Assembly (NCBI GenBank): GCA_045532735.1
Contig: JAZSGL010000091.1
Location: 29,275 to 93,274 of the forward strand
DNA length: 64,000 bases
Direction of reading: 5' to 3'
Source: Paludibacteraceae bacterium
GTDB lineage: Bacteria; Bacteroidota; Bacteroidia; Bacteroidales; Paludibacteraceae
The position numbers and the translations under genes were made by a program. Below are positions 8,565 to 59,333 of the stretch, piece by piece. The notes below the pieces were generated by a model, which saw nothing but the letters and a program-made list of their open reading frames with translations, ran no database searches and was not told where the DNA came from. The stretch's first letter is position 1. Every line of letters starts with the position of its first letter.

Positions 8565-10067
8565 ATGAAGCAAGTGAATAATCTGTTATTTATAGGTATT
8601 GCGGCCGCATTGCTCGGCTGCAATACCCCCGTTGACAATCCTAATGACGATCCTACCACTGACCCTACTCCCGTGCGTGATGTGATGACCTATGTCACCA
8701 CCGCAGACGGTACGATGGGCTTCGTAGCAGTAGGCAAGGATTATATCGAAGGCCTCAATATGTCGCCAGAGCGTACACTGAAACTCAATCCTAAAGTTCG
8801 CTACCAAGAGTTTGAAGGTTTTGGTGCGGCTATCACAGGTGCTGCGGCCTTCAACCTCATGCAGATGCCAGCTGAGCGTCGTCAGAAGTTGCTCATAGAG
8901 ACCTTCTCGCACGACAAGGGTATGGGCTACGGCTATGTGCGCGTGCCTATCGGCGGTAGCGACTTCAACTCGCGCAGCAACTACGACTATACCTGCTGCG
9001 ATACCAAAGGTATCGAGAACTTTGCACTGACATCCGACGAAGTGGATTATATCATCCCTGTGCTGAAGGAAATCTTGGCCATCAACCCTGATCTGAAAGT
9101 AATGGGTACACCTTGGAGTTGCCCAATTTGGATGAAGGTGGACGATATCCATAGCAAAGCACCTTATACGGGTGCTAACAAATGGGTAGGTGGTTATCTC
9201 AATCCTGACTACTATCAAGATTATGCGATGTACTTCGTGAAGTGGATCAAGGCCTTTGAGGCAGAGGGTATCCGCATCACTAGCGTGACGCCACAAAACG
9301 AGCCACTCAACTGGGGTAACTCCATGTCCCTCTACATGCCTTGGGATCAGGAGCGCGACTTCATCAAGTTGGCTCTCGGCCCTGTGTTCAAACGCGAGGG
9401 TATCCAAGCTAAGATCATCTGCTTTGACCACAACTACAACTACGATGGCAAAAAGGACCAACTGCAATACCCTATCAAGATCTATGCGGATGCCGAGGCT
9501 AGCCAATATATCGATGGTGCGGCTTATCACAGCTATGGTGGTAGCCCAGTAGAATTGGATAATATCCACAAGCAGGCTCCCGACAAGAACCTCTACTTCA
9601 CCGAGCAATCCATCGGTACATGGAACTACCAGAGCTTTGGTCAATCGCTCATGTCTGAGATGAAGAACACCTGTATCGGTACCGTCACACGCTGGTGCAA
9701 GGCGGTCATCGTATGGAACTTCATGCTCGACGAGAAGGGCGGCCCTCACGGTGGTCCTGGAGCATGCGCTACTTGCTACGGTTCGGTGGACATCTCTTCC
9801 AAGGACTATACCACCCTCACCAAGCGTAGCCACTACTACGTGATTGGTCACCTGAGCAAGGCGCTCAAGCCGGGTTCTACCCGCATTGGTGTATCGGGCT
9901 ATATGCCTACTGGTCTGTCGGCCGTAGCATCGGAGAACCCTGATGGTACCTATGGTTTGGTACTCCTGAACGAGAATGCGCAAGGTATGTCCTTTATCAT
10001 CGAGCATGGTGGCAAGCACTTCGAGATCCAATTGCCTGCCGAGAGTGTCACCTCTTGTGTGTTGTAG
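8565..10067 (+). CDS. Glycoside hydrolase family 30 (beta-1,6-glucanase / glucosylceramidase-like)
   Basis: Lipobox LLGCN. EFEGFGAAITGAAA, acid/base motif TPQNEP and nucleophile motif YFTEQS are typical of GH30. Confidence 0.85.
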   Translation: MKQVNNLLFIGIAAALLGCNTPVDNPNDDPTTDPTPVRDVMTYVTTADGTMGFVAVGKDYIEGLNMSPERTLKLNPKVRYQEFEGFGAAITGAAAFNLMQMPAERRQKLLIETFSHDKGMGYGYVRVPIGGSDFNSRSNYDYTCCDTKGIENFALTSDEVDYIIPVLKEILAINPDLKVMGTPWSCPIWMKVDDIHSKAPYTGANKWVGGYLNPDYYQDYAMYFVKWIKAFEAEGIRITSVTPQNEPLNWGNSMSLYMPWDQERDFIKLALGPVFKREGIQAKIICFDHNYNYDGKKDQLQYPIKIYADAEASQYIDGAAYHSYGGSPVELDNIHKQAPDKNLYFTEQSIGTWNYQSFGQSLMSEMKNTCIGTVTRWCKAVIVWNFMLDEKGGPHGGPGACATCYGSVDISSKDYTTLTKRSHYYVIGHLSKALKPGSTRIGVSGYMPTGLSAVASENPDGTYGLVLLNENAQGMSFIIEHGGKHFEIQLPAESVTSCVL

Positions 10068-10083
10068 GATGTTGTAGAATGGT

Positions 10084-11142
10084 ATGAGAAAGTTTTTGCG
10101 AATATATCTGTTCTCAGCTTTTCTGTTGGCGTCTGGCATGCTACTAAGTGCGTGCCAGTCGGCAGCAGACCAGCGCGTATGCTTCTTCGGCTCGTCGGTA
10201 TGTCGCGGTGTGGGTGCTGATGCGCTCCATGGTTATGCGGCGCAAGTGACCGAAGCTTTGCCTGCTAGTTGGGAGAGCGTGAATATCTCCATCGATGGCA
10301 ACTGCACCTACGACCTCTTTGCTCGCTTTGACCGCGATATGACTCCCGTGGAGGCCAAGTATGTGGTCATCGGCATCAGTCTTGGCAACGAGGGTGTGCA
10401 CGAGCATGGCGCACGCGCCGTCTTGTCCTATCGCGAGAATATGCCTCGCCTGATTCGTATGCTGCAAGAGCAGGGGAGAACGGTCATAGTCACCAACAAC
10501 TATCCTCGCGCCGACTTCAACGAGGTGGACTATGAGGACCTATGTGCTGTGAACCTCGAAGTGCAACAATGGAATGTTCCTACCATCAATGTCTTTGGTA
10601 CGATAGACGATGGCGCAGGTCGCTGGGCAGAGCATATGTGGAATGGTTCGGACATCTATCATCCCAACCAAGTGGGACACGAGGCCATGGCTTCGGCTTT
10701 CCCGCTCACCATCTGGGAGGCACTGCAAGCCGGCAAACCATTGCCCGAGTATATCCCTACGCAGGGCGATGACAACGGTGTGGAGTGCCTGAGCTTCGTG
10801 CCAGAGGGACAAGTGCAGTCCTATACCCTGAGCTATATCAGCGCAGATACTACCTATACCGAAGTATATTCGGCAGCCCAGAAGAAATTATGGCTGTACG
10901 CCAACGGACAACAGGTATCTGTGACCGAAGGAATAGATAAGACAATCGGTACGATCACCATTCATGGCAGCAATATCCACCAACTCCTCTTCTACCGTGC
11001 GGCGATGACCCCTCGAGAGGTGCGCGCGCTGGCTCGTGGCCAGATGCTCCGCTCTAGTTTGGAGATATACTGTCCACTATTGGGTGGCGATGCGACCAAT
11101 TATGCACAAACAATGAATTGTGTGGCAATTCACAATAAATAA
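10084..11142 (+). CDS. SGNH/GDSL-type hydrolase lipoprotein with LamG-like C-terminal region
   Basis: Lipobox LLSACQ. Block I is FFGSSV, block III is SLGNEG and block V is DIYHPNQVGH. The C-terminus FYRAAMTPREVRAL resembles LamG-type ends. Confidence 0.7.
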   Translation: MRKFLRIYLFSAFLLASGMLLSACQSAADQRVCFFGSSVCRGVGADALHGYAAQVTEALPASWESVNISIDGNCTYDLFARFDRDMTPVEAKYVVIGISLGNEGVHEHGARAVLSYRENMPRLIRMLQEQGRTVIVTNNYPRADFNEVDYEDLCAVNLEVQQWNVPTINVFGTIDDGAGRWAEHMWNGSDIYHPNQVGHEAMASAFPLTIWEALQAGKPLPEYIPTQGDDNGVECLSFVPEGQVQSYTLSYISADTTYTEVYSAAQKKLWLYANGQQVSVTEGIDKTIGTITIHGSNIHQLLFYRAAMTPREVRALARGQMLRSSLEIYCPLLGGDATNYAQTMNCVAIHNK

Positions 11143-17986: not shown

Positions 17987-19270
17987 TTATGCTAGACGCA
18001 ACGAATTCTTCTGATAAAAACCATGTGCAATATGCTGAATATCATTAGATTGTGTGTATTTTGTCAACCAATTATTCATCGTTTTTACGCTCACTCCAAG
18101 GACCTTCGCTTGCTCAATGGCGTCTTGCTTCGTAAAGTCCGTGGGAAGCATTTGGAAGAATTGCTTTTGCAACATATTTCCCCCTATCTCACCCATTGGA
18201 GTGGGCTTCAATTCGGGCATCATCTGGAATACCATCGCCGCGTGCATCAGCAGTTTGTGACCAATGAGGAGTATCGTCTGAAAATCCTCCTCCGAGCAAA
18301 CGACTCGTTCGGGCAGCGGCTTGGTCATATCTAGTCGTAATCCTGTGAGGATCATACCTATACGCTTCATGATCACGGGCATACGCTTGAGCGAGGCGTC
18401 AAACAGTCCGCCTAGCTCCTGGCTATAGGTGTCATACTCGCTGCGGAACATACGTTTGATGGTCTTGAGTTGGGCATCCGTGAAGTAGAAGTAGCACGCA
18501 TGTCCTGCCTCCTCCATCCATAGATAGCGGTCGCCAAGTTCGGTGGCAAGACGGTCGTAGAGGATTGCTTCGCGAGGGGTATTACCCTCCGTATCTGTGT
18601 CCCACACCTGGTCATCGAAGTCCATACGACTATTGACTACATAGCAGCCAAAGCGGGACATCAGTCCATTCTCGCGGTTGCGCAAGAGGGGAGCTACTTG
18701 GTTAGGCGTACCCGATAGGAGCATGGCGATACGCGGGTAGCGAATCTCGATAAACTCGTTGTTCTGGCGGCGAAGTTGGCTGACCGTTTCGTGCTCGAAT
18801 ATACAGCGAACGATGTCGCCAAACTGACCGTAAGCGGCTCTGAGTGTTTGGGTTAGGGTGTCCATCTCCGTTGCGAAGACGATGCCGCGACCGTCGTACT
18901 CGTCCATCATCTTCATCAGGGCAGAGGCCGACGAGTTGGCGGGGATATACACCTGTTTGCCGTTCTTTCCCTCAATGGCCTGCAGCAACAGCCGACCGTA
19001 GTTCATGATGCCTTTGCCCGAGGCAGCAGGGGCAACAATCATGGTCAGCAGTTCGGGGCAGTAGGTGTGATGAGGGCGCCCGTGGAGCATGCGCATGGCA
19101 GGTACAGCGTAGCCGCAATTGGTTAATACAGAGAGCAATAGCATGTCGCGTGTCTCACCTACGGGAGCCACGGAGATAGCTCTTTCAATAAAAGATGGTA
19201 GTTGATTAGGTTGTAGGTTTGGGGTGATGAGAAGGTCATCCTTCTCTGGAATTAATGTACTTTTTTCCAT
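17987..19270 (-). CDS. DUF3987-like P-loop protein with C-terminal HTH (mobile-element replication/primase-helicase-associated family)
   Basis: Walker A VAPAASGKG, Walker-B-like GIVFATEMD and a C-terminal HTH-like segment (DAIEQAKVLGVSVKTMNNWLTKY). The family call is from memory of DUF3987 proteins in Bacteroides mobile elements. Confidence 0.7.
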   Translation of the reverse strand: MEKSTLIPEKDDLLITPNLQPNQLPSFIERAISVAPVGETRDMLLLSVLTNCGYAVPAMRMLHGRPHHTYCPELLTMIVAPAASGKGIMNYGRLLLQAIEGKNGKQVYIPANSSASALMKMMDEYDGRGIVFATEMDTLTQTLRAAYGQFGDIVRCIFEHETVSQLRRQNNEFIEIRYPRIAMLLSGTPNQVAPLLRNRENGLMSRFGCYVVNSRMDFDDQVWDTDTEGNTPREAILYDRLATELGDRYLWMEEAGHACYFYFTDAQLKTIKRMFRSEYDTYSQELGGLFDASLKRMPVIMKRIGMILTGLRLDMTKPLPERVVCSEEDFQTILLIGHKLLMHAAMVFQMMPELKPTPMGEIGGNMLQKQFFQMLPTDFTKQDAIEQAKVLGVSVKTMNNWLTKYTQSNDIQHIAHGFYQKNSLRLA

Positions 19271-19374
19271 TGTGTAATGGGGTTTAGGGTTATTTAATTA
19301 TATAAGGTGTACCTCTTAATAGATACACTGGAGGATCTACAATTTTTGGATTGCAACACAATCAAAATCGACTG

Positions 19375-19382
19375 CAAAATTA
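19375..19382 (-). promoter_or_regulatory. -7 box (TAatTTTG on the minus strand) for the DUF3987 gene
   Basis: The plus strand reads caaaatta. It lies about 105 nt upstream of the ATG at 19270. Confidence 0.4.
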
Positions 19383-19478
19383 CTGCTAAAATTTCTTTTC
19401 GCAATGCTTGCCACGCATTATAGGATATCCATTTTTATAAGTCGTAGATAACCAATAATTTGCCCAACCATTAGGTAT

Positions 19479-19594
19479 CTTATAAATCGGATATAAATGC
19501 TTATAAATCGGATATGAGATTTGGCGGTGTAGGGTAGTGTAGGATGGTTTAGAGTGGTGTAGTATGGTGTAGTATGGTGTAGAGTGGTTTTGAG
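19479..19594 (+). repeat. Iteron-like arrays: 2 x 21-bp (cttataaatcggatat...) then 7 x 10-bp (TGGTGTAGNN)
   Basis: The 21-bp units start at 19479 and 19500. The 10-bp units are cggtgtaggg, tagtgtagga, tggtttagag, tggtgtagta, tggtgtagta, tggtgtagag and tggttttgag (19525-19594). Confidence 0.85.
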
Positions 19595-19785
19595 TTTGCC
19601 CATCAATGCAAGTTTTTGCATTCTTTTGGGCAAAAACAAAAGTTAATCTATGAATTGACGATAATTGACAACCTAATTGACAATAATTGTCTTTAAAAAT
19701 TAATTCTCGATTTTTATTTATTTTTGTAGCTCGGAACGAGCGTATTTTTGTTTCTCTAAAATAATTTTCTACAATTTTGGTTAAT

Positions 19786-19894
19786 TTTTGGATCTCTTCC
19801 ATCCCTTATTCCCTTAAAAAATCGCATGTTTTTCAGAAAAACCAACAAAATTTATAAATAAATTTGTTTGTTCCGAAAAATTGTATTACCTTTG
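19786..19894 (+). promoter_or_regulatory. Promoter/operator module P, copy A (drives abiEi)
   Basis: 109 bp, about nine-tenths identical to 21945-22053. It contains the palindromes tttttcagaaaaa and aacaaaatttat..ataaatttgtt (19844-19868) and ends in the -7 box TAccTTTG (19887-19894). Confidence 0.8.
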
Positions 19895-19938
19895 CTGCAG
19901 ATTTCCCAAATATGTAACAAAAATGGGAAAAATTACCA

Positions 19939-20544
19939 ATGAAAAATAGCGTTGCAAATACTATTAAACAACTGATTATCAGCAGAGGACGTGCTAAGTT
20001 TTGGTTTGTTGATGATTTTGTTGCTATCGGAAGTAATGACTCTGCTCGTAAGGCACTTCAGCAACTGACCAACGAGCAGATGTTGCTCCGTATTTGCCAT
20101 GGTGTTTATTATTATCCAAAGATAGATCGCGAACTGGGATTAGGTGTCTTAATGCCTTCTAAAGAGAGTACGGCTCTTGCAATAGCCAAACATGCAGGGC
20201 TGAAAATTGTTCCTACAGGAGCATTTGCGCTGAATGCGTTGGGGATAACCACTCAAATGCAAACTGTTGTTGCTTTCTTGACTAATGGTCGCGCACGTCA
20301 AATTGATTTGGGAAACGAAAGATACATCAAGTTTTTTCATTCATCCTCGCAACGACTTTTTGAATACAAATCCTATCGCATGATACTCATCATCCAAGCT
20401 ATGACCGAATTGGGCGAAAATGGCTTGACCGAGGATGTTCGATCAAAGCTGAAAGAACAAGTGTCGTTGGTATCAGAAAGGGATTTTATCCATGACATCA
20501 AACTGGCTCCTATATGGGCGCAAACAATACTCAAAGAACTATGA
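19939..20544 (+). CDS. AbiEi-family (DUF6088-like) type IV antitoxin / transcriptional regulator
   Basis: 201 aa. The pattern CHGVYYYPK...PTGAFALNALGITTQ is typical of AbiEi-like antitoxins. Its stop overlaps the start of the AbiEii gene (ATGA at 20541-20544). Confidence 0.7.
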   Translation: MKNSVANTIKQLIISRGRAKFWFVDDFVAIGSNDSARKALQQLTNEQMLLRICHGVYYYPKIDRELGLGVLMPSKESTALAIAKHAGLKIVPTGAFALNALGITTQMQTVVAFLTNGRARQIDLGNERYIKFFHSSSQRLFEYKSYRMILIIQAMTELGENGLTEDVRSKLKEQVSLVSERDFIHDIKLAPIWAQTILKEL

Positions 20545-21551
20545 TTTACACCGATTTGCAAACAGAGAGGATGCTTGCCGTCCTTGATCAAGTTAGTGCC
20601 CAAACAAACTCTACTCAACAGACCATAGAGAAAGACTGGTGGGTGACTCAGGTACTACGGGTGCTATTTTCTCTTCCCTACGCCGCGCATTTATCGTTCA
20701 AAGGCGGAACATCGCTTAGCAAAGCGTGGAATATCATTGAGCGTTTCTCCGAGGATGTGGATATCGCCATTAGTCGGGAGTTTCTTGGCTTCGTTGGCGA
20801 ACTGAGTCGCACACAAGTGAGCGATAAGTTGCGCCGTGCGGCATGCTCGTTTGTACGCGATAAGATGCAGAATGACCTTAGAAAGGGTCTGGTAGCATTG
20901 GGTATTGCACCTGAAAAGTTTAATGTGTATGTGAATATCACTTCGGTAAGTACAACTGATCCTGAGGTTATATACATTGATTATGAATCTGTTCTTCCTA
21001 ATTCGGAATATATTGCACATACCGTCAAAGTAGAGGTAGGTGGTCGTAGTATGGCGGAGCCTGTGCAGAGTGTATCTATTCAATCGCAGATAGATGCGGT
21101 CCTTTCACAAGCTATGATAGTGCAGCCTGCGTTTGATGTTAATGTGGTGATTCCAGAACGAACGTTCTTAGAGAAGGTGATGTTGCTGCATGAGGAGTTC
21201 GCAAAACCTACGACTGAAGTACGCACGGAGCGTATGAGTCGACATCTATATGACTTGCACCGCATGTTGCATACAGATATTGCACAGCGTGCTTTAAGCG
21301 ACGAAGCACTCTATCGGGCAATAGTAGAACATCGCCGCAAGTTTATTAATCTGCGTGATTTTGACTACGATACACTTTATCCTAAGCACCTATCCTTGGA
21401 GATTCCTACCAATGTGATAGATCTGTGGCGCAAGGATTACGAAACGATGCAGCGTACCATGATCTATGGTCATTCTGTTGCTTTTGACGAATTGCTCGCA
21501 GAGATTCGCCAACTTAATAGATGTATCAGCCAACTGCCTTATCAGAAGTGA
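20541..21551 (+). CDS. AbiEii/AbiGii-family nucleotidyltransferase toxin (DUF1814)
   Basis: NTase motif FKGGTSLSKAWNIIERFSEDVDIAI. The ATG at 20541 was chosen over the track start because of the ATGA overlap with abiEi. Confidence 0.85.
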   Translation: MIYTDLQTERMLAVLDQVSAQTNSTQQTIEKDWWVTQVLRVLFSLPYAAHLSFKGGTSLSKAWNIIERFSEDVDIAISREFLGFVGELSRTQVSDKLRRAACSFVRDKMQNDLRKGLVALGIAPEKFNVYVNITSVSTTDPEVIYIDYESVLPNSEYIAHTVKVEVGGRSMAEPVQSVSIQSQIDAVLSQAMIVQPAFDVNVVIPERTFLEKVMLLHEEFAKPTTEVRTERMSRHLYDLHRMLHTDIAQRALSDEALYRAIVEHRRKFINLRDFDYDTLYPKHLSLEIPTNVIDLWRKDYETMQRTMIYGHSVAFDELLAEIRQLNRCISQLPYQK

Positions 21552-21693
21552 TCTTATGGAATAGTTTAAGTGGTTTAACATTCTATCTCCCACTGATCTC
21601 ACTAATCTTCACGGATTACCATGATTAAAATTAGTGTCGATCCGTGCTATCCGTGGGAGTTATATTCCCGCGTTTTGTTAATATTAATCCCCC

Positions 21694-21795
21694 CGTCGCG
21701 CCAGGATGTTCTTATCTCCCTTCGGTCGAACGATCGCTTCGCGTACGATTGGCGCGAAAGTTGTTTAAGTTGTCGTTATTATCAATAATTCTAGT
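21694..21795 (+). repeat. Module R1, long-loop copy; direct repeat of 15745-15846
   Basis: 102 bp with 1 mismatch. The stem is 21696-21703 / 21750-21757. Confidence 0.9.
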
Positions 21796-21815
21796 TGTTT
21801 TTTAGTTGTAGTGTC

Positions 21816-21944
21816 TAAGATTCAGGCGCGAGCGACTGCGCAGTGCCGGTGGTAATTTATTTCGGAGAACACAGAAAAGTGCGGATCATAGCGTAAAAAA
21901 GATTTATTAGATTTCTGCGAGCCTGCGAGCAAGGAGATACATAA
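21816..21944 (+). repeat. Module R4 (about 130 nt); second copy at 32443-32578
   Basis: Shared blocks are taagattcag, ggtggtaatttatt.cggag, aaaagatt.at.agatttctgc and aggagata. Between these blocks the two copies carry hairpins of different sequence at the same position. Confidence 0.6.
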
Positions 21945-22053
21945 TTTTGGGATCTATTCCATTCCTGTTCCCTTAAAAAATCACATGTTTTTCAGAAAAA
22001 TTAACAAAATTTATAAATAAATTTGTTTGTTCCGAAAAATTATATTACCTTTG
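21945..22053 (+). promoter_or_regulatory. Promoter/operator module P, copy B (drives the leader of the 2684-aa gene)
   Basis: It has the same palindromes as copy A (22003-22027). The -7 box TAccTTTG lies at 22046-22053. Confidence 0.8.
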
Positions 22054-22161
22054 TCGCCTAATACACAAAGGATTAACTCGTATCTGATTAGATATAATAC
22101 CATGAAAGTCAAGACATTTTGCCTTGCTTATGTAAAATCTTTCGTTTCCGCCCTTGAAAAT

Positions 22162-22170
22162 GGGGGGGGG
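22162..22170 (+). repeat. Homopolymeric G9 tract in the leader
   Basis: The sequence reads t ggggggggg t. The tract lies inside a 54-codon upstream ORF (ATG at 22102, stop at 22264-22266). Confidence 0.95.
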
Positions 22171-22223
22171 TATTTGTCTTATAAATTTCCAGAACTCCGT
22201 TCTAATCAAGTATTTTCAACCTC

Positions 22224-22255
22224 GCAGAGCCTTTTTACAAAGGGTTCTGCTTTTT
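22224..22255 (+). terminator. Intrinsic-terminator-like hairpin inside the leader, 34 nt before the giant-gene ATG
   Basis: gcagagcctttt / aaagggttctgc, a 12-bp stem including two G-T pairs, with a 3-nt loop followed by ttttt. Confidence 0.65.
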
Positions 22256-22288
22256 GTATGTTGTGATAAAATTTAATACCAAATATTT

Positions 22289-25200
22289 ATGAAAAAATTT
22301 ACTCTATTTTTAGTTGCGATGACGATGAGTTTGTTATCGTTTGCGCAAACTCAGATGAGCGGTACTTACACTGTGGGTACGGGTGGCTCTTATGATTATA
22401 GCTCTATGGCAGATGCTGGTATGGCAATCAAGGATGCTGAGTTTACAGGTGATGTAACTTTGCTTATCTGTACAGACTTAACCGAAACCATCAACACGGG
22501 TATCGTAAATAAGTCCAATTACACATTGACAATTCGTCCTGACAAGGATGAAAATCGTACCATTACCTATACTACAGCAACGGACAATACAGGTCCTACT
22601 GGTGTTTTTGTGATAGGTGGTGATATGACCAAGACTCCTGGTTCTACCATCGGTTGGGCTTCTGTTCCTACAAAGAATGTAATCGTCGATGGTGCTGCCG
22701 AAGGCAAAACTACACCTCGATTGAAAATTACAAACAATAAATGGGGCACTAATGTTTTGCTATATGGTGATGTACAAGATGTGATTATTAGGAATTGTAT
22801 TCTTGTTGGTAGAAGTGGTTCTAGCACAGCATATTCGTTGGCGTTTCGTTCTGAAAACTATTCGAAAACATCTAAAAATATTGGTCCTAAAAACTGCGTA
22901 GCAGAAAATTGCATTATAGAATCTGCATCAACACAGTCTCAAGTAGTATATTGTCAAGGAAACCAAGCCAATTCATACGCAGGTTATCCTACTAACATTA
23001 CCATTCGAAACTGTAGCATAACATCACATCTTCGTGGCATATTTTTGTATGGTGTAAACAACTTTGATATGGAAGGCTGTGTGCTTAAAATGTTAGAAAC
23101 TACGGCAGGATATATGTGTCACGGAATTTTAGGTACTACAGTTAGAGGAACTATTAATGTAAGAGGTAATAAGTTTATCAAAAACTCTACAAAAAATACT
23201 AGTGCAGGAGAATATGGATTGCAAACTATTACAGCTTCTGGTGGAGCAACTGAATGGGTGATTGAAAATAACTATTTTGCTGGTTATGATGCGTTAGCTT
23301 CTGGAACTACGTCAAAGGAGTCTCGTTTGGTAGGTATTCGTTGCGGTGATTATTGTGTAGTTCGTCATAATACATTCCATATGCCAAAACTAACCTACGC
23401 TCCTGGTACTTCACTCGTAGGTACACACGCTGTAGCATTATTATGGTTAGCAGGTTCTCATAAATATCCTGTTCAAAACAACATCTTCGTTTGCGAAGAG
23501 ACCGCAGCTAATGTTAGTTTGATTCGAGGAGGTTTGAATGAAAATGTAACTGGTAATGTATTCTACCACAATGGCGGAAAGGCAGCTATTGTAGCCGCTG
23601 CTCCTTCTTGTATGACCTTTGCAGATTTAGAAACATCATATCCTACTCAAGCAGCTACTTCAAAATGGAAGAATGTTACTTTTACAGATGCAGCAAATGG
23701 TGATTTGTCTTTAGCAGGACTCTCTGACGGAGATTTTGATTTAGCAGTTGATCGTCTTGCTGATGTGCTCACAGATATTGAAGGGAAAACTCGTGGTGAG
23801 AAAACACATGCAGGTGCATATGAAGGAACTTTCCGAGAGCCATTACCTTCTTCTATCTCTTTGAATGCTTATCCAGTGCAAGATTATAGTGCAAGTATCG
23901 TTGGTACAATGAAACGTGCTATTCAAAACGGTGAGAACACCATCGTGTTAACTCACGAAGCAGATGGTACCCCTCATATCTATAATATCGCACATGCTGC
24001 AAAGACCGTTACCGAAATTTCTCAAGAGGGCGTGGTGGCTGTAGACACAGAAAACTTGGGAGATTATTTATCTATATCAGACATCGCTTTGACTGAAGAT
24101 GGTAAATTAATAGCTTCCAACTATATGCGTTGCGAACAAGGAACAACACCTGCTACTGGATACAAGGTCGGTGAGATTCGTTACTACATTTGGAGTGATA
24201 TTAATGGTGCACCTACTCGTTGGTTTACAACCAATAGAACAGCAAACTCGACATATGCAGATGTTAGTTATACATTTGCCATAAAAGGTACATCTACGAA
24301 TGCGCAAGTAATGTCAACTGCTGTACACAATAGCAATCGTGCTGCTCGTATTAACTTGCACACAGTGGTAGGCGGTGTAGAAACTGCATATCATCGTTTT
24401 GGTCTCCATACCACAGCCTCTGAGTATACCGAAGCAAAACAAGGTTTGAACTTCCAACTTACAGCAACTCCTTTAGATAATGTATGGACACTGGAGGGTG
24501 AGTTGACAGATGCAACTTCATTTGCGGTTCCTGCTACACTTGGAGCAGAGTACAATGGAACTGCTCTTAATGGAACAAACCTCGGACAGAAATATAATGG
24601 CGTAAGTTATTTGCCAAACTATAATGATCATCACCTCATGGTGGCTCCTTATGCCGATGGATCGGGTAAATTAGCCGGTGTAAAAGTATTGGGTATTACA
24701 TATGGTTTTGATAACGCTATTGCTATAGCAACAAATACAAATTTATTAAATACTATTGACGCTACCGCCGCAGCCGCTACTGCGTATGTAGATGGTGATG
24801 GTGACTTGACTATTTATCTCATTGCGGATGCCAAAGTTTATGCGTTTAGTCAAAAAGCCCCTATCGCTGACTTCTGTACCGTTACGGCTACAGCTGGCGA
24901 GGGTGGCTCAGTAGAAGGTAGTGGTACATACGAAGCTAACACAATAGTTACTCTTACCGCAACCCCTGCAGAGCACTATACTTTCAAAAATTGGACTGTT
25001 GCAGGTTCTGAAGTTTCAACCACCGCAACATATTCGTTTGAAGTGACTACTGATGTAGAGGTGACTGCCAACTTTAAAGAAGATGATAAATTCACTATCA
25101 ATGCACATGCAGATCATACTAGCAAGGGTTATGTAACTGGTGGTGGAGAAAATATCTATGTTGGTACTGAACTACTGCTCAAGGCTACAGCGAAGAGCGG

Positions 25201-28200
25201 TTACTATTTTACTCAATGGAATGATGGTAATACCAACAACCCACGCACCATTACTGTAACCGATGATGCAGAGTATATAGCAGAGTTTGCAGAGGCATAT
25301 CCACGCGTATATGCATATGGTCTTAATGTGGTAAATAATGGAGATGATACTTATACATTCTCATTTAAGCCAAATACTGATGCAATAAGCGGTAATTTGC
25401 TTCTATATAGTGAGGATGGAACAACTGTGGCAAAAACAGTAGCGATTACAACGCCAATTATTGCCAACACAGTAAATTCTATTACTCTCTCTAAGACCGA
25501 CTTGCCTGATCAGTCTGACATTCCTTGGGCTATAGAATTAAGCGGCAATGCTATTCCTGCATTTGCAGAGACATTCGCTGATAGTGACCTTCGTTTCGCA
25601 AGAGCTCATGCAGTTATAGATAATAGTCCAGAGTCTGAATATTTTGGACGAGTATATGTAGCAGACCGCCGCAAAACCAAATCAGACAGTAAAGTATATG
25701 TTTATAATCCAGACTTTACAGATTTTACGAACACAAACTTAGGATTGGCTACTGCTGGTTATTCTCGTCCTGCAGTTGGAGCGGATGGTACATTGTATTT
25801 AACAGGTTATACAGATGGCGCTGAAGCAGGTATCTTCGTTGTGGATCCTGCCGATTTGACCAAATGTACACAATTCTTTAATGGTACATACGATTCTGAT
25901 GGTTTGTATAAAAATAATGGTAAAGAAATAGGTAGTTCTACATCAGGTGTTGGCGTATATGGCGCAGGTAAAGATGCTGTACTATACACCATGATGGAAG
26001 ATGGAAGCAATGCCAATTTCGATTCAGGCAAACAACCTATTGTCAAGTATCAAATTGGTCAAGAGAATGGTACTGTGCTTAAGCAGTGGAGCGACGAGCC
26101 AACATGGTGGGTAAATTATCCTGCTAAGGCAGCAGATAAGAGCTACAACTTTGGTAACAATGATTTTGCCGCTACAGCGAAAGGAGTGTGGGTAAGTCAA
26201 AACAAGTCTAATCCTGCTGATCGTCCTGAAATAGCCTTTGTGGATAAAACAGGTACTATTCGGTTCATGCAAAATAGCAAGCCAAGTTTAGGCGGTGGTA
26301 TGACTGTTAATGCTGACAATACCGCATTATATATTGTAGAAGATAGCAAAATTTTGGAATATGCTATTACATGGAACGAAAATACACCATCTCTGACCCT
26401 GTCAAATACATATCCTATAAGTCTTCAATATATTTCTACATTATCCGTAGATTATGCAGGAAATCTTATTGCTTGCGCAGGTACAACTTATGGCACTACA
26501 GACAACAATGTTATGAAAGTGGTTCGTTTTACTCTCCCTACAGACAACAATACTACTATTGTGCCAGCGGCTAAAGCAAAATCACTCAAGTTAGGCAATC
26601 GATATACCGTGACTGTAGATATAAACGATGAGTCTATGGGTGAAGTGATTGGAGCGGGTTTGTATAAGGAAGGTGAAATAGCGACACTTGCTGCAGCTCC
26701 AGTAGCCAACCACCGCATCGTGAATTGGAAGAACGGAGAAGAAGTTCTCTCAACAGATTTGACATGTTCGTTTGAGGTTACTGAGGATGTTACAATCAAT
26801 GTAACTTTTGAAAAGATTCCACAATATACAGTCACTACTGTAGCATCTCCTGATGGTAAAGGAACGATCATAGGTGGTGGTACATATAATGAAGGTACAG
26901 AGGTAGAGTTGAAAGCTACAGCTCATACAGGTTACACATTTGTGAGATGGGAAGATGATGACACTGCAGAGGCTACTCGTACTATTACAGTTACTGGCCC
27001 AGTTACCTACACTGCAATTTTTGACAAAGTATCTCCACGCGCATGGGCGTATGATTTAAGGAAAGGTGAAGATGGCGAAAACTATACGTTCACCTTCAAG
27101 ACTACTAGCGCAGGTACAGCTACCTTAATCTTTAAAGATAAAGATGGTAACACATTAGACTTTGGCGCACACACCGCAACTGCTACTACCGCTGAAGAAA
27201 AAACAATTACGATTGCAAAATCCACCTTTGAAGATGCTACCAAAGATATTTACTGGTCAGTACAGATGGATGGTGCTGCAATTGAGAATATGGTGGAAGT
27301 TACCGATCCTGCTGCTGGAATTTACAACTTCTATGTCCCTCAAGGTATTGCTGTGGACAATAATACCAATTCTAACTATTTCGGACAAATATATGTTGCA
27401 CAAGCAACAAATGGTGCTAGTGATGGCGGATCCGAAATGGCTAAAAATCAGACAGTTGGTTTGTTTGTATATGATCAAAAACTAACATTGAAAAATACGA
27501 ACTATGAGGGTATTGCTCCTCAAAATGTAGCGTTCAATACAGGAAATCCTATTGGTAGTATAGATGCTATTCGTCAACAAATGCACCGTATAGCTGTAGA
27601 TCCTATTACTAGTGAAGTAGCCTTTGCTTATTACAAATCTGATGCTACCCCTGCTACGGCTATATATGCAATGAATCCTACCGAATTGCCAGGCAACGCG
27701 ACCAATTTGATAAATGGTGCTAGTATAACTAAAGCAAACTCATTGTGCTATGATGAAAAAGGTGCGTTATATGTAATGGATAATGCTAATACTGGTACTG
27801 TAGGAGGACAAATCTATAAGTGTACAAAGGATGGAGTTGAGCTATTTGCTAAACATCAAGCAGAATGCCAATGGGCTGTTTATGACAATGCAATGGCTTC
27901 CGACGGTCGTGGTGGTCTATGGATTGCGCAAAATCGTTACGGATACGATTATCCTATTCTTTCTCACGTAAACAAAGATGGAGTGGTAGATTTCGCTGTT
28001 AAAGAAAATCTAAATAGTTGGTTCCCTAATAATAATACAGGTTCTTCATATCGTGGACAATTGGCTTACAACCTGAGTGAGAATATCTTGGCATTTGCTG
28101 GTAATAAGATGGTTACCCTGTTTACCGTAGAATATGACGGAGATGCTAAACCAACCATCAACAAATTAATGTCAACACCTTTGCTAGGTGGTGGTAATAT

Positions 28201-30343
28201 TGATGGTGTGGCATTTGACTATGCAGGTGACTTGTATGTGGCTTCTGCAAGTGCTGAGCGCTTGTATAAGTTTGTAGTGCCTACCAACAACAACACTTGC
28301 ACCGTACCTGCTCCTGAGTCACAAGTAATCCAAAAGGAGACACGATACAAAGTGGAGGTTGTGGCTAATCCAGTAGAAGGTGGTTCGGTATCAGGTGGCG
28401 GCGAAGCTGTCGCAGGAGCTCAAGTGGCAGTAAGTGCAACCGCCAATACGGGCTATCGCTTTGTAAACTGGACTGAGGGTAGTGATGAGGTATCTACCGA
28501 TGCAAGTTTCTCTTATACCGTCCCTGCTGCTGATGTGACGCTTATCGCTAACTTTGAGTTAATAACTTATACCCTGATAACATCTACCAACGATGAGAAT
28601 AAGGGTACAGTTAGCGTAGATGGTGTATGCACTCATGGATCCACTGTAACACTCACCGCTACTCCAGAAGAAGGCTACAAACTCCTCTACTGGAGCGATC
28701 GTTCTACAGAGAACCCACGCACCATTACGATGACCAAGAATGAGGCTATTTCTGCATACTTCGTGAAGGAATATGACATGGAGCCTACCTTTAAAATTGA
28801 GAAAGTTTGGGAGAACACCCAAGTGCCTGGAAGTGCTGATGGTTACCAAGCAGTAGGTTGGGATGGTAAGATCTATATGCAAAACAAAACAGCAGGAAAG
28901 ATTAAGATATATAGCAATGGTACAGATGCTGCTGTAGATTATGCTACGTCTAATACTTCTGGTCAGCAAATCGCAGTGGATGAAGCTGGTAATTTGATTG
29001 TATTCAACGCGACATTCTACACAATAACACCTAATGCTATCATAATTTATCCAAAAGGTAGTACAACGGGCACAGCTATTTCCTTTACATTGCCTTATCC
29101 AGAGCGTTGCGACTTTATCTCTGCTTCTGGTGATATTTACAGCGCAGAAGGTGGATATGTGTATTTCTATTGCCAAAATAAGAATGCCGTTAATCGTGTG
29201 AAAATTACCAATGGAGCACTCGCTTCGGTAGATGCTATAGGTAACACAGAAAAACCAGCAACTAGTGTTAGTCATGTTATGGTGGATATTTTTGGCAACT
29301 TGGCTGCTCATTGTCGCTCAACTGCAGTTTACGCCATCAACTCTTATACAGGTGAAACGACTGCATTTACCACTACCCTTTCTGGTGTCAAACTGAGCAC
29401 ACTCGGTGGCTGCACATTTGAATTAGGTGGCAAAGAATTGTGGGCATATAATGTAGGTACTACAAACTATAATAGTGAGTGGAATTTGTACAACATGACC
29501 GATAAGGTATTTATGTCAAACGAAACACTCTATGCTAAAGATAAAGATAGCAGGAAAACTACAGGACCTGCTAACTGGCTCAATGTACAAGTAGTAGATG
29601 AGAATACTGCTTACATTTATCAATTCTGCCCAGAAGTAGCAGTAGCTGTTTGGAAAGTAAGTATTGAAACTGAAGTAAATGTCACTATCGACGAAGACGC
29701 TGATAATACTACTGCACTCGCTCCATACGAGGGTGAGACAGTTACAGCTACAGTCACTCGCAACTTCGGTGCGAATAAGATCTTGACTGTCACATTGCCA
29801 TTCGATATGAGCGCATCACAAATCAGCAATCACTTCGGTAATGCTACTGTATACGAGTTCTACAATGTGGTAGATGCAGGCGAAGAACTTCACTTGCAAT
29901 TCGCTCATACTAATTCTATCGAAGCAGGTAAGCCATATATTCTCCAAACTACAACTAGTGGGTATGATGCCGAGGATGGATTTACCATCGAAGATGTGAC
30001 CATCAATACTGAGCCTACTCATGTTAAGAGAGGAGATATCACGATGGTACCTGTATTAGATGGTGGTGGCACATTAAATCAACCAACCCAATACTATCTT
30101 TCTGACAATGCATTGTATTGTGCTGGTGACTACGAGCGACCATTGCCAGGTTTGCGTGCTTTCTTTACTTCGGCATCGTCAACTCCAATCCGCGCACGCG
30201 TGATATTCGATGACAACGGGGCAACATCTATCCCAACGGTGATCGCTCCTGAGACGAAAGCGCAAAAGATAATCCAGGATGGACGACTCTTTATCATCCG
30301 CGGTGAACACCAATACAACGCACAAGGTCAAATGATTGAATAA
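22289..30343 (+). CDS. Giant (2684 aa) secreted protein: beta-helix head, three pairs of InlB-B-repeat-like domains, Ig/propeller supermodules, C-terminal sorting-like tail
   Basis: The signal peptide is MKKFTLFLVAMTMSLLSFAQT. PbH1-like turns (NCILVGRS, NCIIESAS, IRNCSITSH, VRGNKFIKNS, IENNYFAG, VRHNTFHM, VQNNIFVCE) end in DIEGKTRGEKTHAGAYEG. The repeat pairs lie at 24875-25288, 26600-27028 and 28343-28768. The tail is KIIQDGRLFIIRGEHQYNAQGQMIE. Confidence 0.9.
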   Translation: MKKFTLFLVAMTMSLLSFAQTQMSGTYTVGTGGSYDYSSMADAGMAIKDAEFTGDVTLLICTDLTETINTGIVNKSNYTLTIRPDKDENRTITYTTATDNTGPTGVFVIGGDMTKTPGSTIGWASVPTKNVIVDGAAEGKTTPRLKITNNKWGTNVLLYGDVQDVIIRNCILVGRSGSSTAYSLAFRSENYSKTSKNIGPKNCVAENCIIESASTQSQVVYCQGNQANSYAGYPTNITIRNCSITSHLRGIFLYGVNNFDMEGCVLKMLETTAGYMCHGILGTTVRGTINVRGNKFIKNSTKNTSAGEYGLQTITASGGATEWVIENNYFAGYDALASGTTSKESRLVGIRCGDYCVVRHNTFHMPKLTYAPGTSLVGTHAVALLWLAGSHKYPVQNNIFVCEETAANVSLIRGGLNENVTGNVFYHNGGKAAIVAAAPSCMTFADLETSYPTQAATSKWKNVTFTDAANGDLSLAGLSDGDFDLAVDRLADVLTDIEGKTRGEKTHAGAYEGTFREPLPSSISLNAYPVQDYSASIVGTMKRAIQNGENTIVLTHEADGTPHIYNIAHAAKTVTEISQEGVVAVDTENLGDYLSISDIALTEDGKLIASNYMRCEQGTTPATGYKVGEIRYYIWSDINGAPTRWFTTNRTANSTYADVSYTFAIKGTSTNAQVMSTAVHNSNRAARINLHTVVGGVETAYHRFGLHTTASEYTEAKQGLNFQLTATPLDNVWTLEGELTDATSFAVPATLGAEYNGTALNGTNLGQKYNGVSYLPNYNDHHLMVAPYADGSGKLAGVKVLGITYGFDNAIAIATNTNLLNTIDATAAAATAYVDGDGDLTIYLIADAKVYAFSQKAPIADFCTVTATAGEGGSVEGSGTYEANTIVTLTATPAEHYTFKNWTVAGSEVSTTATYSFEVTTDVEVTANFKEDDKFTINAHADHTSKGYVTGGGENIYVGTELLLKATAKSGYYFTQWNDGNTNNPRTITVTDDAEYIAEFAEAYPRVYAYGLNVVNNGDDTYTFSFKPNTDAISGNLLLYSEDGTTVAKTVAITTPIIANTVNSITLSKTDLPDQSDIPWAIELSGNAIPAFAETFADSDLRFARAHAVIDNSPESEYFGRVYVADRRKTKSDSKVYVYNPDFTDFTNTNLGLATAGYSRPAVGADGTLYLTGYTDGAEAGIFVVDPADLTKCTQFFNGTYDSDGLYKNNGKEIGSSTSGVGVYGAGKDAVLYTMMEDGSNANFDSGKQPIVKYQIGQENGTVLKQWSDEPTWWVNYPAKAADKSYNFGNNDFAATAKGVWVSQNKSNPADRPEIAFVDKTGTIRFMQNSKPSLGGGMTVNADNTALYIVEDSKILEYAITWNENTPSLTLSNTYPISLQYISTLSVDYAGNLIACAGTTYGTTDNNVMKVVRFTLPTDNNTTIVPAAKAKSLKLGNRYTVTVDINDESMGEVIGAGLYKEGEIATLAAAPVANHRIVNWKNGEEVLSTDLTCSFEVTEDVTINVTFEKIPQYTVTTVASPDGKGTIIGGGTYNEGTEVELKATAHTGYTFVRWEDDDTAEATRTITVTGPVTYTAIFDKVSPRAWAYDLRKGEDGENYTFTFKTTSAGTATLIFKDKDGNTLDFGAHTATATTAEEKTITIAKSTFEDATKDIYWSVQMDGAAIENMVEVTDPAAGIYNFYVPQGIAVDNNTNSNYFGQIYVAQATNGASDGGSEMAKNQTVGLFVYDQKLTLKNTNYEGIAPQNVAFNTGNPIGSIDAIRQQMHRIAVDPITSEVAFAYYKSDATPATAIYAMNPTELPGNATNLINGASITKANSLCYDEKGALYVMDNANTGTVGGQIYKCTKDGVELFAKHQAECQWAVYDNAMASDGRGGLWIAQNRYGYDYPILSHVNKDGVVDFAVKENLNSWFPNNNTGSSYRGQLAYNLSENILAFAGNKMVTLFTVEYDGDAKPTINKLMSTPLLGGGNIDGVAFDYAGDLYVASASAERLYKFVVPTNNNTCTVPAPESQVIQKETRYKVEVVANPVEGGSVSGGGEAVAGAQVAVSATANTGYRFVNWTEGSDEVSTDASFSYTVPAADVTLIANFELITYTLITSTNDENKGTVSVDGVCTHGSTVTLTATPEEGYKLLYWSDRSTENPRTITMTKNEAISAYFVKEYDMEPTFKIEKVWENTQVPGSADGYQAVGWDGKIYMQNKTAGKIKIYSNGTDAAVDYATSNTSGQQIAVDEAGNLIVFNATFYTITPNAIIIYPKGSTTGTAISFTLPYPERCDFISASGDIYSAEGGYVYFYCQNKNAVNRVKITNGALASVDAIGNTEKPATSVSHVMVDIFGNLAAHCRSTAVYAINSYTGETTAFTTTLSGVKLSTLGGCTFELGGKELWAYNVGTTNYNSEWNLYNMTDKVFMSNETLYAKDKDSRKTTGPANWLNVQVVDENTAYIYQFCPEVAVAVWKVSIETEVNVTIDEDADNTTALAPYEGETVTATVTRNFGANKILTVTLPFDMSASQISNHFGNATVYEFYNVVDAGEELHLQFAHTNSIEAGKPYILQTTTSGYDAEDGFTIEDVTINTEPTHVKRGDITMVPVLDGGGTLNQPTQYYLSDNALYCAGDYERPLPGLRAFFTSASSTPIRARVIFDDNGATSIPTVIAPETKAQKIIQDGRLFIIRGEHQYNAQGQMIE

Positions 30344-59259: not shown

Positions 59260-59333
59260 TCGGGATGACAAGATTTGAACTTGCGACCTCCGGTCCCCCA
59301 GACCGTTGCGCTACCGGGCTGCGCCACATCCCG
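59260..59333 (-). tRNA. tRNA-Pro (anticodon GGG)
   Basis: A 74-nt cloverleaf was folded by hand. The acceptor stem is CGGGATG/CATCCCG plus discriminator A. The D stem is GCGC/GCGC and the anticodon loop is CTGGGGG. The T arm is GCAAG-TTCAAAT-CTTGT. CCA is not encoded. Confidence 0.9.

Follow-up and report, generated by a model that had tools for sequence, protein, structure and literature searches.

The 64,000-nt stretch of DNA analyzed here (hereafter the window; positions 29,275 to 93,274 of contig JAZSGL010000091.1, assembly GCA_045532735.1, from a Paludibacteraceae bacterium) carries a giant gene encoding a protein of 2684 aa, preceded by a leader that includes an upstream open reading frame (uORF), a run of nine G and an intrinsic-terminator-like hairpin. 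Two known principles are relevant to such an arrangement: attenuation in which a ribosome blocks a terminator, and contingency loci in which the length of a simple sequence repeat (SSR) varies. In Escherichia coli K-12, the rph-1 frameshift lowers the expression of pyrE, a natural case of an upstream frameshift acting via an attenuator, and in the leader of tlpB from Helicobacter pylori, a variable G-repeat targeted by the small RNA (sRNA) RepG sets downstream expression. The pyrE attenuator sits downstream of rph (PMC3203608). Poly-G tracts turn genes ON or OFF in Campylobacter jejuni (PMC11955535). In Moraxella catarrhalis, the length of a poly-G tract located upstream of the large adhesin ORF uspA1 alters the mRNA level in a graded manner, and an extra A beside this tract shifts which lengths are "high" (PMC7302503). 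Our search of the full-text literature retrieved neither a description of a uORF that carries a repeat and is coupled to a terminator nor a report of SSR phase variation in Bacteroidota.

We propose, with a probability of roughly 0.45, that translation of the uORF into the terminator permits read-through towards the giant gene and that slippage in the G-run sets the frame of this translation, the whole leader acting as a gate that controls a giant surface protein in a phase-variable manner. The anatomy concerned lies on the + strand, as do all features below unless otherwise indicated. The uORF covers 22102-22266 (54 codons, ATG at 22102, TGA at 22264-22266) and encodes the peptide MKVKTFCLAYVKSFVSALENGGGYLSYKFPELRSNQVFSTSQSLFTKGSAFCML. 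The G9 homopolymer lies within it at 22162-22170, where it is read GGG GGG GGG, and a 12-bp hairpin (22224-22250) is followed by T5 (22251-22255). These three elements, as well as a TAnnTTTG box, TACCTTTG, at 22046-22053, had been pointed out by an earlier inspection of the letters of the window (hereafter the sequence-only reading) and were all found in the sequence at the positions that it gave. In the window, the uORF crosses the hairpin and ends 22 nt ahead of the ATG of the giant gene, which occupies 22289-30343. The G9 is the sole G run of at least seven nucleotides on either strand of the 64 kb; by itself, it is unremarkable (about 0.1 expected, our own estimate from base composition), and the comparison of G7 with shuffled sequences is also non-significant. 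The case for more than chance is one of conservation across relatives and not of the window alone.

The relatives come from animal-gut metagenomes and metagenome-assembled genomes (MAGs); all are assembled consensus sequences and each locus (L001, L002 and so on) comes from a different sample. They were retrieved by: (i) a genome scan with the N-terminus of the giant protein, which gave three Paludibacteraceae MAG loci, (ii) a protein search with the same N-terminus, which gave fragments whose contigs were then fetched, (iii) the exact uORF peptide, present on two contigs, (iv) a profile of four uORF translations, which gave nine small ORF products whose contigs were fetched, and (v) a JGI scan with the hairpin pattern, which gave 22 matches, 19 by chance and three from real loci that were added to the set. 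A scan of JGI metagenomes with the invariant DNA encoding the signal peptide gave no matches. The comparison covered 22 related loci; in all, the leader was found in 23 loci, in 13 distinct versions. Despite heavy sequence divergence, the layout does not change from one version to another: AUG, 60 nt, tract zone (the zone of the G-run), 54 nt and hairpin.

Among the 23 loci, insertions or deletions between the AUG and the stem of the hairpin are confined to the tract zone. An uninterrupted run of six to eleven G is kept in 13/13 versions, as expected of the homopolymer of a contingency locus: G6 (three samples), G7, G8 (several), G9 (several), G10 (two versions) and G11. The tract zones measure 12 nt (AAAAT-G6-T), 14 nt (T/AAAAT-G8 or A-G7-T), 15 nt, 16 nt (G10 or A-G9) or 18 nt (AAAAT-C-G11-T). 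The length of 15 nt, found in seven of the 13 versions, is reached by different sequences: AAAAT-G9-T, AAAAT/C-A-G8-T, AAAAA-T-G8-T or AAAAC-G10. One of them (A5-T-G8 in L021) looks like a gain of A compensating for a loss of G, and in another one (G10 in L043) both flanking bases have been absorbed into the run. The window (G9) differs from the G6 lineage at only one of 138 flanking positions, i.e. the length has changed between near-identical flanks. Since G6 was recovered from three independent samples and G8 from two, these lengths are real and are not assembly noise. The G tract, which the sequence-only reading had supposed to be variable, is thus length-polymorphic among relatives (G6 to G11). 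A pyrimidine-rich block just ahead of the run, AAAATCTTTCGTTTCCGCCCTTGAAAAT (22134-22161), is conserved in all versions, and the alignment shows a near-invariant TATTTGT box after the run (22171-22177), with one-base variants in three versions (TGTTTGT in L018, TATTTTT in L012 and L025).

The consequences of a change in length were read from the frames. If the run of the window gains one G, it is followed by GTA TTT GTC TTA TAA, with the stop codon at 22182-22184, 12 nt past the run and 42 nt short of the hairpin. This early TAA had been predicted by the sequence-only reading, as had the frame remaining open beyond the hairpin after the loss of one G, and both predictions hold. In all 10 versions that were frame-tested, the stop of the +1 frame is located 12-24 nt past the run and 30-42 nt short of the hairpin. 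Such frames also occur naturally: the product predicted for the gain of one G, ...GGGVFVL*, is that of L011 (peptide P0018, G10), and the equivalent TAG is actually read in L025 (A+G9). These two are the only versions with an early stop (42-43 nt short of the hairpin) and are exactly the n+1 variants. In all but two versions, the observed frame is an open one; for leaders of the L002 and L006 types, this is also the sole frame of the three that extends as far as the hairpin.

The start codon of the uORF is located exactly 60 nt ahead of the tract zone in 13/13 versions (ATG, or GTG in one of them), and the 20 codons that separate it from the G-run are open in all versions; stop counts over these 60 nt, made in 11 versions, are 0, 25 and 7 for frames 0, 1 and 2, respectively. 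Downstream, the uORF stays open up to 9 nt or less from the hairpin, or past it, in 11/13 versions, its stop being located 40-64 nt beyond the start of the hairpin in seven versions and 3-9 nt short of it in four (L002, L034, L012/L013 and L043). In these 11 versions, the leader ORF enters the hairpin or ends within about 10 nt of it, as in attenuators of the pyrBI/pyrE type. This openness holds across five unrelated versions of codons 2-10 and at least three unrelated versions of the 54-nt segment. For a given version, an ORF that starts at the ATG and reaches the hairpin is found in about 10% of composition-preserving shuffles; over three to five largely independent versions, the joint chance of the open frames is about 1e-3, a rough value as independence is only approximate. 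In L017 (2501-2692), the T-run after the hairpin is T7 and, because of this, the stop of the uORF overlaps the start of the giant gene as ATGA, an arrangement suggestive of translational coupling. The same ending (...LKLISNIL) is found in the peptides P0012 and P0014.

The reading frame is maintained, and the peptide is not. Codons 2-10 (22105-22131) form a hypervariable segment in the alignment of the relatives, with five mutually unrelated versions (window, L006, L002, L025 and L043) that are all exactly 27 nt long and devoid of stops in the uORF frame. This segment sits between two invariant flanks, CCATGA and GCAAAATCTTT, an extreme turnover at fixed length. Variable sites are spread evenly over the three codon positions (14/14/14 and 13/18/16), without any third-position bias, and the ratios of synonymous to nonsynonymous changes (6:48 and 2:44) show no purifying selection on the peptide. 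Since the frame is kept without conservation of the peptide, this pattern is what one would expect of a regulatory uORF: being translated may matter, whereas the product does not. The comparison of relatives is in line with the regulatory role that the sequence-only reading had suggested for the uORF, its start, frame and spacings being conserved while its peptide is not.

The hairpin of the window includes 12 bp, two of which are G-U pairs, and a 3-nt loop; its predicted free energy is -16.4 kcal/mol (z = -4.7). A stable stem-loop followed by a T-run is what defines an intrinsic terminator, and a terminator is predicted here on this basis. In every version, the hairpin starts exactly 54 nt after the tract zone and is kept together with its T-run (T4-T7, with one A between stem and run in two versions). 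The stem has 11-12 bp, with energies of -13 to -18.1 kcal/mol in six versions; z is about -4.4 to -5.0 for five of them and -2.7 for L003. The 3′ arm, AAGGGTTCTG, is invariant. Substitutions of the 5′ arm within the stem are compatible with pairing, namely AG to GA in L018 and A to G in L011, and the loss of pairs in L003, L011 and L017 is limited to the outermost one. RNAalifold detected no conserved structure besides the terminator in 11 versions and, in particular, no conserved helix competing with the terminator arms, as would be expected of a trp/his-type antiterminator. The run of codons typical of trp/his leaders is not found either: the G-run codes for Gly or Arg-Gly and the downstream gene encodes a repeat-domain protein, presumably secreted, rather than belonging to a biosynthetic operon. 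No Rfam family matches the leader, and a search of 21500-22400 at E values up to 10 only gave a meaningless poxvirus match on the hairpin. Two other candidate stems were rejected for lack of conservation: AUGAAAG/CUUUCGU, predicted in the window, which by our inspection of the sequences shifts register in L043 and is unpaired in L002, and AGAAC/GUUCU (22201-22213), which is missing from both L006 and L002.

The sequence-only reading considered the box at 22046-22053 as the only TAnnTTTG box upstream of the giant gene. This is wrong, as there are three such boxes on the + strand, at 21942-21949, 22018-22025 and 22046-22053. However, the last one is kept in all close relatives, and the TTTG (22022-22025) of the second one, TAAATTTG, is located 20 nt upstream of it. 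In Bacteroides promoters, a -33 TTTG element is expected at a spacing of about 20 nt from the -7 box. Because of its conservation and of this TTTG at the expected -33 spacing, TACCTTTG is the best promoter candidate. The region ending at this box (21975-22053, about 80 nt) is near-invariant in eight relatives, even when the DNA farther upstream is unrelated, and is predicted from its match to the consensus to function as a promoter. It is more conserved than the 5′ untranslated stretch that follows, and it includes an imperfect palindrome (21988-22039), centred on TTTATAAA, that could be a regulator-binding site. Transcription is expected to start a few nt past the box, giving a predicted 5′ untranslated stretch at 22054-22101; the distance between the box and the AUG of the uORF is 29-61 nt in the 11 aligned versions. 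This AUG is preceded by an A-rich context, AGATATAATACC, and lies within CCATGA in every version except L011 (CCGTGA). Bacteroidota do not rely on Shine-Dalgarno-led initiation. An internal promoter candidate, TATTTTCA, at 22212-22219 was rejected as unsupported: its match to the consensus does not include the final TG, and neither L012 nor L018 has it. An invertible element, as in the invertible promoters of Bacteroidales, was also rejected: only weak AT-rich inverted repeats flank the cassette, the best pair (15 nt, AT-rich, 87%) overlaps the ATG of the giant gene, and a single orientation was found in 23/23 loci.

Between the T-run and the giant ATG, 33 nt (22256-22288) form a spacer that includes the translation-initiation region, TTAATACCAAATATTT, and is conserved in each of the versions with the giant gene. 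In the relatives, the giant gene begins about 35 nt past the hairpin; in L043, where a different gene follows, the distance is about 90 nt. The spacer contains no TAnnTTTG box and, since no conserved promoter box is found between the hairpin and the giant gene, read-through of the terminator would be the simplest route to expression of the latter. The idea that the giant gene needs such read-through, put forward by the sequence-only reading, is supported to this extent. The giant protein contains six InlB B-repeat (Flg_new_2) domains and its N-terminus resembles a signal peptide (by eye, from MKKFTLFLVAMTMSLLSFAQ); it is therefore presumably secreted or exposed at the surface. No T9SS sorting domain was matched in NCBIfam. 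The DNA encoding the signal peptide at 22310-22333, TTTTAGTTGCGATGACGATGAGTT, is identical among giant genes whose products are only 75% identical over their N-terminal 400 residues, and L025 and L034 diverge straight after it.

The proposed mechanism would operate as follows. A Bacteroidota-type promoter (TTTG, 20 nt, TACCTTTG) would start the RNA, whose first frame, opened by the AUG at 22102, would be translated regardless of the peptide produced. A ribosome trailing the polymerase into, or up to, the terminator (22224-22255) would block the hairpin, and the polymerase would continue into the giant gene. The G-run, 60 nt into the uORF, would be prone to slippage, possibly at a high rate, and its length would set the frame. 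With one more G, the ribosome would come off the RNA 30-42 nt short of the hairpin, a distance of 42 nt in the window; the terminator would then form and transcription would presumably end there, leaving the giant gene OFF. In the other frame or frames, the ribosome would reach the hairpin and the giant gene would be ON. The outcome would be a heritable and reversible, i.e. phase-variable, switch for a giant surface protein. Somewhat more tentatively, the leader could be classified as a contingency locus that acts via a leader-peptide attenuator, in which a ribosome stopping well before the terminator would mean OFF, one stopping at the terminator or beyond it ON, and one whose stop overlaps the AUG of the giant gene ON with translational coupling.

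Several points weigh against this phase-variable gate. To our knowledge, coupling between transcription and translation has not been demonstrated in Bacteroidota. The uORF stops 3-9 nt before the hairpin in L002, L034, L012/L013, L043 and the in-frame form of L025, and the model therefore needs a terminating ribosome that still blocks the 5′ arm. In leaders of the window type, two of the three frames reach the hairpin, so that the frame observed there is weak evidence. Moreover, tract length is constant across samples within a lineage (G6 in three, G9 in at least six), which could mean either slow switching or selection for one state. It should also be emphasized that there is an ascertainment bias: many versions were found via the uORF peptide, which favours in-frame variants, and the peptide search misses most +1 variants, as their ORF falls below the length used for gene calling. 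No two-sided compensatory change was found in the hairpin. Lastly, about 45 nt around the run (22134-22177) are conserved in nucleotides beyond what a uORF with an irrelevant product would need, which points to an additional or alternative role at the RNA or DNA level.

Such a role, exerted by the G-run without any translation and with an incidental open frame, is unlikely in our opinion but deserves the most attention among the other explanations. The length of the run could tune pairing with an sRNA acting in trans, as RepG does on tlpB, or with an internal partner, CCGCCC (22149-22154); the UAUUUG box could mask the initiation region of the giant gene (22280-22286); or the tract could directly affect transcription, as does the G(n) tract of uspA1 in M. 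catarrhalis. The absence of any codon-position pattern in the conserved 22134-22177 region argues for this, and there are precedents in the graded transcription of uspA1 (PMC7302503) and in the RepG-targeted repeat of tlpB, as cited in PMC7366714 (its ref. 109). RNAalifold also proposes pairing of CC.CCCU with the G-run and of GUAUUUG (22170-22176) with CAAAUAU (22280-22286). Both of the latter motifs, the second of which lies 3-9 nt ahead of the giant AUG, are near-invariant, and L001, which has no G-run, also has a different sequence at the CAAAUAU site, in the initiation region. However, the hairpin formed by CCGCCC with GGGGGG is no better than those of shuffled sequences (z = -0.6 to +0.5) and was rejected; the GUAUUUG/CAAAUAU helix shows no covariation and one of its pairs is broken in L012, so that this pairing is a possibility only; and no C-rich partner was found in the 64-kb window, to which the search was confined. 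Furthermore, a run acting in this way accounts neither for the AUG at precisely -60 and the open frame that follows it in five unrelated versions nor for the coincidence of the two early-stop versions with the n+1 forms. A rather improbable alternative is that the segment from promoter to hairpin is a separate RNA gene of about 195 nt, an idea already raised by the sequence-only reading. It would encode an sRNA that acts in trans and possibly has a dual function, the hairpin would just be its terminator, and the giant gene would be expressed by leak-through or from an unrecognised promoter. This alternative would account for a conserved promoter block and a strong conserved terminator of its own, for the fold of 22060-22260, somewhat better than those of shuffled sequences (z = -2.8), and for the modularity of the cassette, which precedes a different gene in L043; Bacteroides transcriptomes are also rich in 5′-derived and intergenic sRNAs and in long 5′ UTRs (untranslated regions) with small ORFs (PMC7366714). 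Yet the segment was never found alone, as in 23/23 loci it is directly upstream of, and co-oriented with, a gene whose product has a signal-peptide-like start (MKK...); it has no match in Rfam and no conserved structure apart from the terminator, and there is neither space nor a box for a promoter past the hairpin. The two readings are compatible in so far as attenuated leaders can be stable RNAs.

Even less probable is the lack of any dedicated function, in which a conserved 5′ UTR would merely combine a mutational hotspot with a leaky hairpin and the ORF and frame pattern would result from chance and ascertainment. The G9 alone and the ORF alone are each unremarkable in one window, the peptide-based search is biased towards in-frame forms, and tract length is stable within lineages, all of which are compatible with it. 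Neutral decay would however interrupt a G-run, and a run of at least six G persists at the same place in 13/13 versions at about 33-36% G+C, while the 60- and 54-nt spacings survive near-saturating substitution and the joint probability of open frames in independent versions is, roughly, as low as the value given above. We consider it very improbable that the uORF is the gene of a functional small protein containing a poly-glycine stretch of variable length. In several assemblies it was called by gene-prediction programs, its start context is good, and the differences between tract zones of 12, 15 and 18 nt amount to whole numbers of glycine codons; but the codon-position and substitution counts disfavour this alternative, which the sequence-only reading had left standing. 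Besides, the C-terminal third of the peptide is absent from four versions (the L002, L034, L012 and L043 types) and its middle is read in a different frame in L003. It has no Pfam match, and the profile of four uORF translations retrieved nothing but nine small ORF products from 5.8 billion proteins, without longer or distant homologues, which also led us to reject the uORF as a fragment of a larger gene.

The distribution of the leader differs from that of the giant gene. Homologous giant genes in L001, L007 and L009 have plain leaders without this cassette, and L043 (reverse strand, about nt 1-330) carries the cassette, with G10, about 90 nt before a different gene, whose signal-peptide-like start is MKKLFTFLLALMA. 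For these two reasons, the leader appears to be an accessory and portable cassette that is not tied to one gene. Upstream of it, the window carries a variable island (17987-21551) that comprises a DUF3987 gene on the - strand and a DUF6088/AbiEii toxin-antitoxin-like pair. This island is also present in L003-L005, L014-L016 and L018-L020; it is replaced by a SusD-like gene in L021-L023 and by unrelated DNA in L002, and L017 carries DUF3987 without the AbiE pair. In the otherwise unrelated spacer that precedes the cassette, two inverted arms of 34 nt (21584-21662) show 71% complementarity, and the upstream spacers of L002 (2300-2400) and L003 (1747-1800) contain tandem CATACCCGA-like units and CCTCGCC-like units, respectively. 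Elsewhere in the window, two ORFs of about 500 aa overlap on opposite strands (8565-10067 on the + strand and 8586-10139 on the - strand), and a tRNA gene (59260-59333, - strand) is the sole match at the Rfam gathering threshold.

If the proposed gate exists, it may be the first case of simple-repeat phase variation in Bacteroidota and the first repeat to act via translation-dependent antitermination. Indirectly, it would also suggest that translating ribosomes are able to affect termination in this phylum. The surfaces of gut Bacteroidales vary mainly by DNA inversion, and a slippage switch would then offer a second and cheaper route. By placing the repeat in a throw-away frame ahead of a terminator, an 8-kb gene would be silenced at the transcriptional level without production of a truncated protein. 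The fixed 60-nt and 54-nt spacings, together with the G-run and the hairpin, provide a pattern to search for more cassettes.

Among known systems, the pyrBI and pyrE (rph-pyrE) attenuators of E. coli are similar in that an upstream frame crosses the terminator, or ends a few nt before it, ahead of the regulated gene, and a trailing ribosome blocks the hairpin, the same principle as proposed here. They differ in that they sense UTP via polymerase pausing and have no hypermutable repeat, whereas the variable input here would be the length of a DNA tract; they also belong to another phylum and control biosynthetic enzymes rather than a giant surface protein. The trp, his and leu attenuators share the succession of a short leader ORF, a terminator and a regulated gene; however, no conserved antiterminator helix was found in the present leader, its GGG codons have no link with the function of the downstream gene, and its ORF overlaps the terminator. 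The poly-G contingency loci of Campylobacter, Neisseria, Haemophilus and Helicobacter resemble it by a retained and length-polymorphic G-run (6-11 here), by a length that sets the frame and leads to premature stops, and by a surface protein as target. In contrast to them, the tract is located here in a uORF whose product is irrelevant and would act via a terminator, not within a structural gene or a promoter spacer. The extra A beside the uspA1 tract recalls the A5-T-G8 version found here, but no uORF or terminator has been described for uspA1 and its effect is graded, whereas a dependence on frame is suggested for the present leader. The tlpB/RepG system differs by its need for a C/U-rich sRNA partner, its action on translation and the absence of frame conservation among its features. 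The invertible promoters of Bacteroidales have the same presumed purpose, the phase variation of surface structures in gut Bacteroidales (reported in ref. 65 as cited by PMC7366714), but they differ from the present cassette, which has no convincing flanking inverted repeats and is found in one orientation in 23/23 loci. Overall, the parts of this leader, i.e. a contingency repeat and an attenuation blocked by a ribosome, correspond to known principles, while their combination and the phylum in which it occurs would be new.

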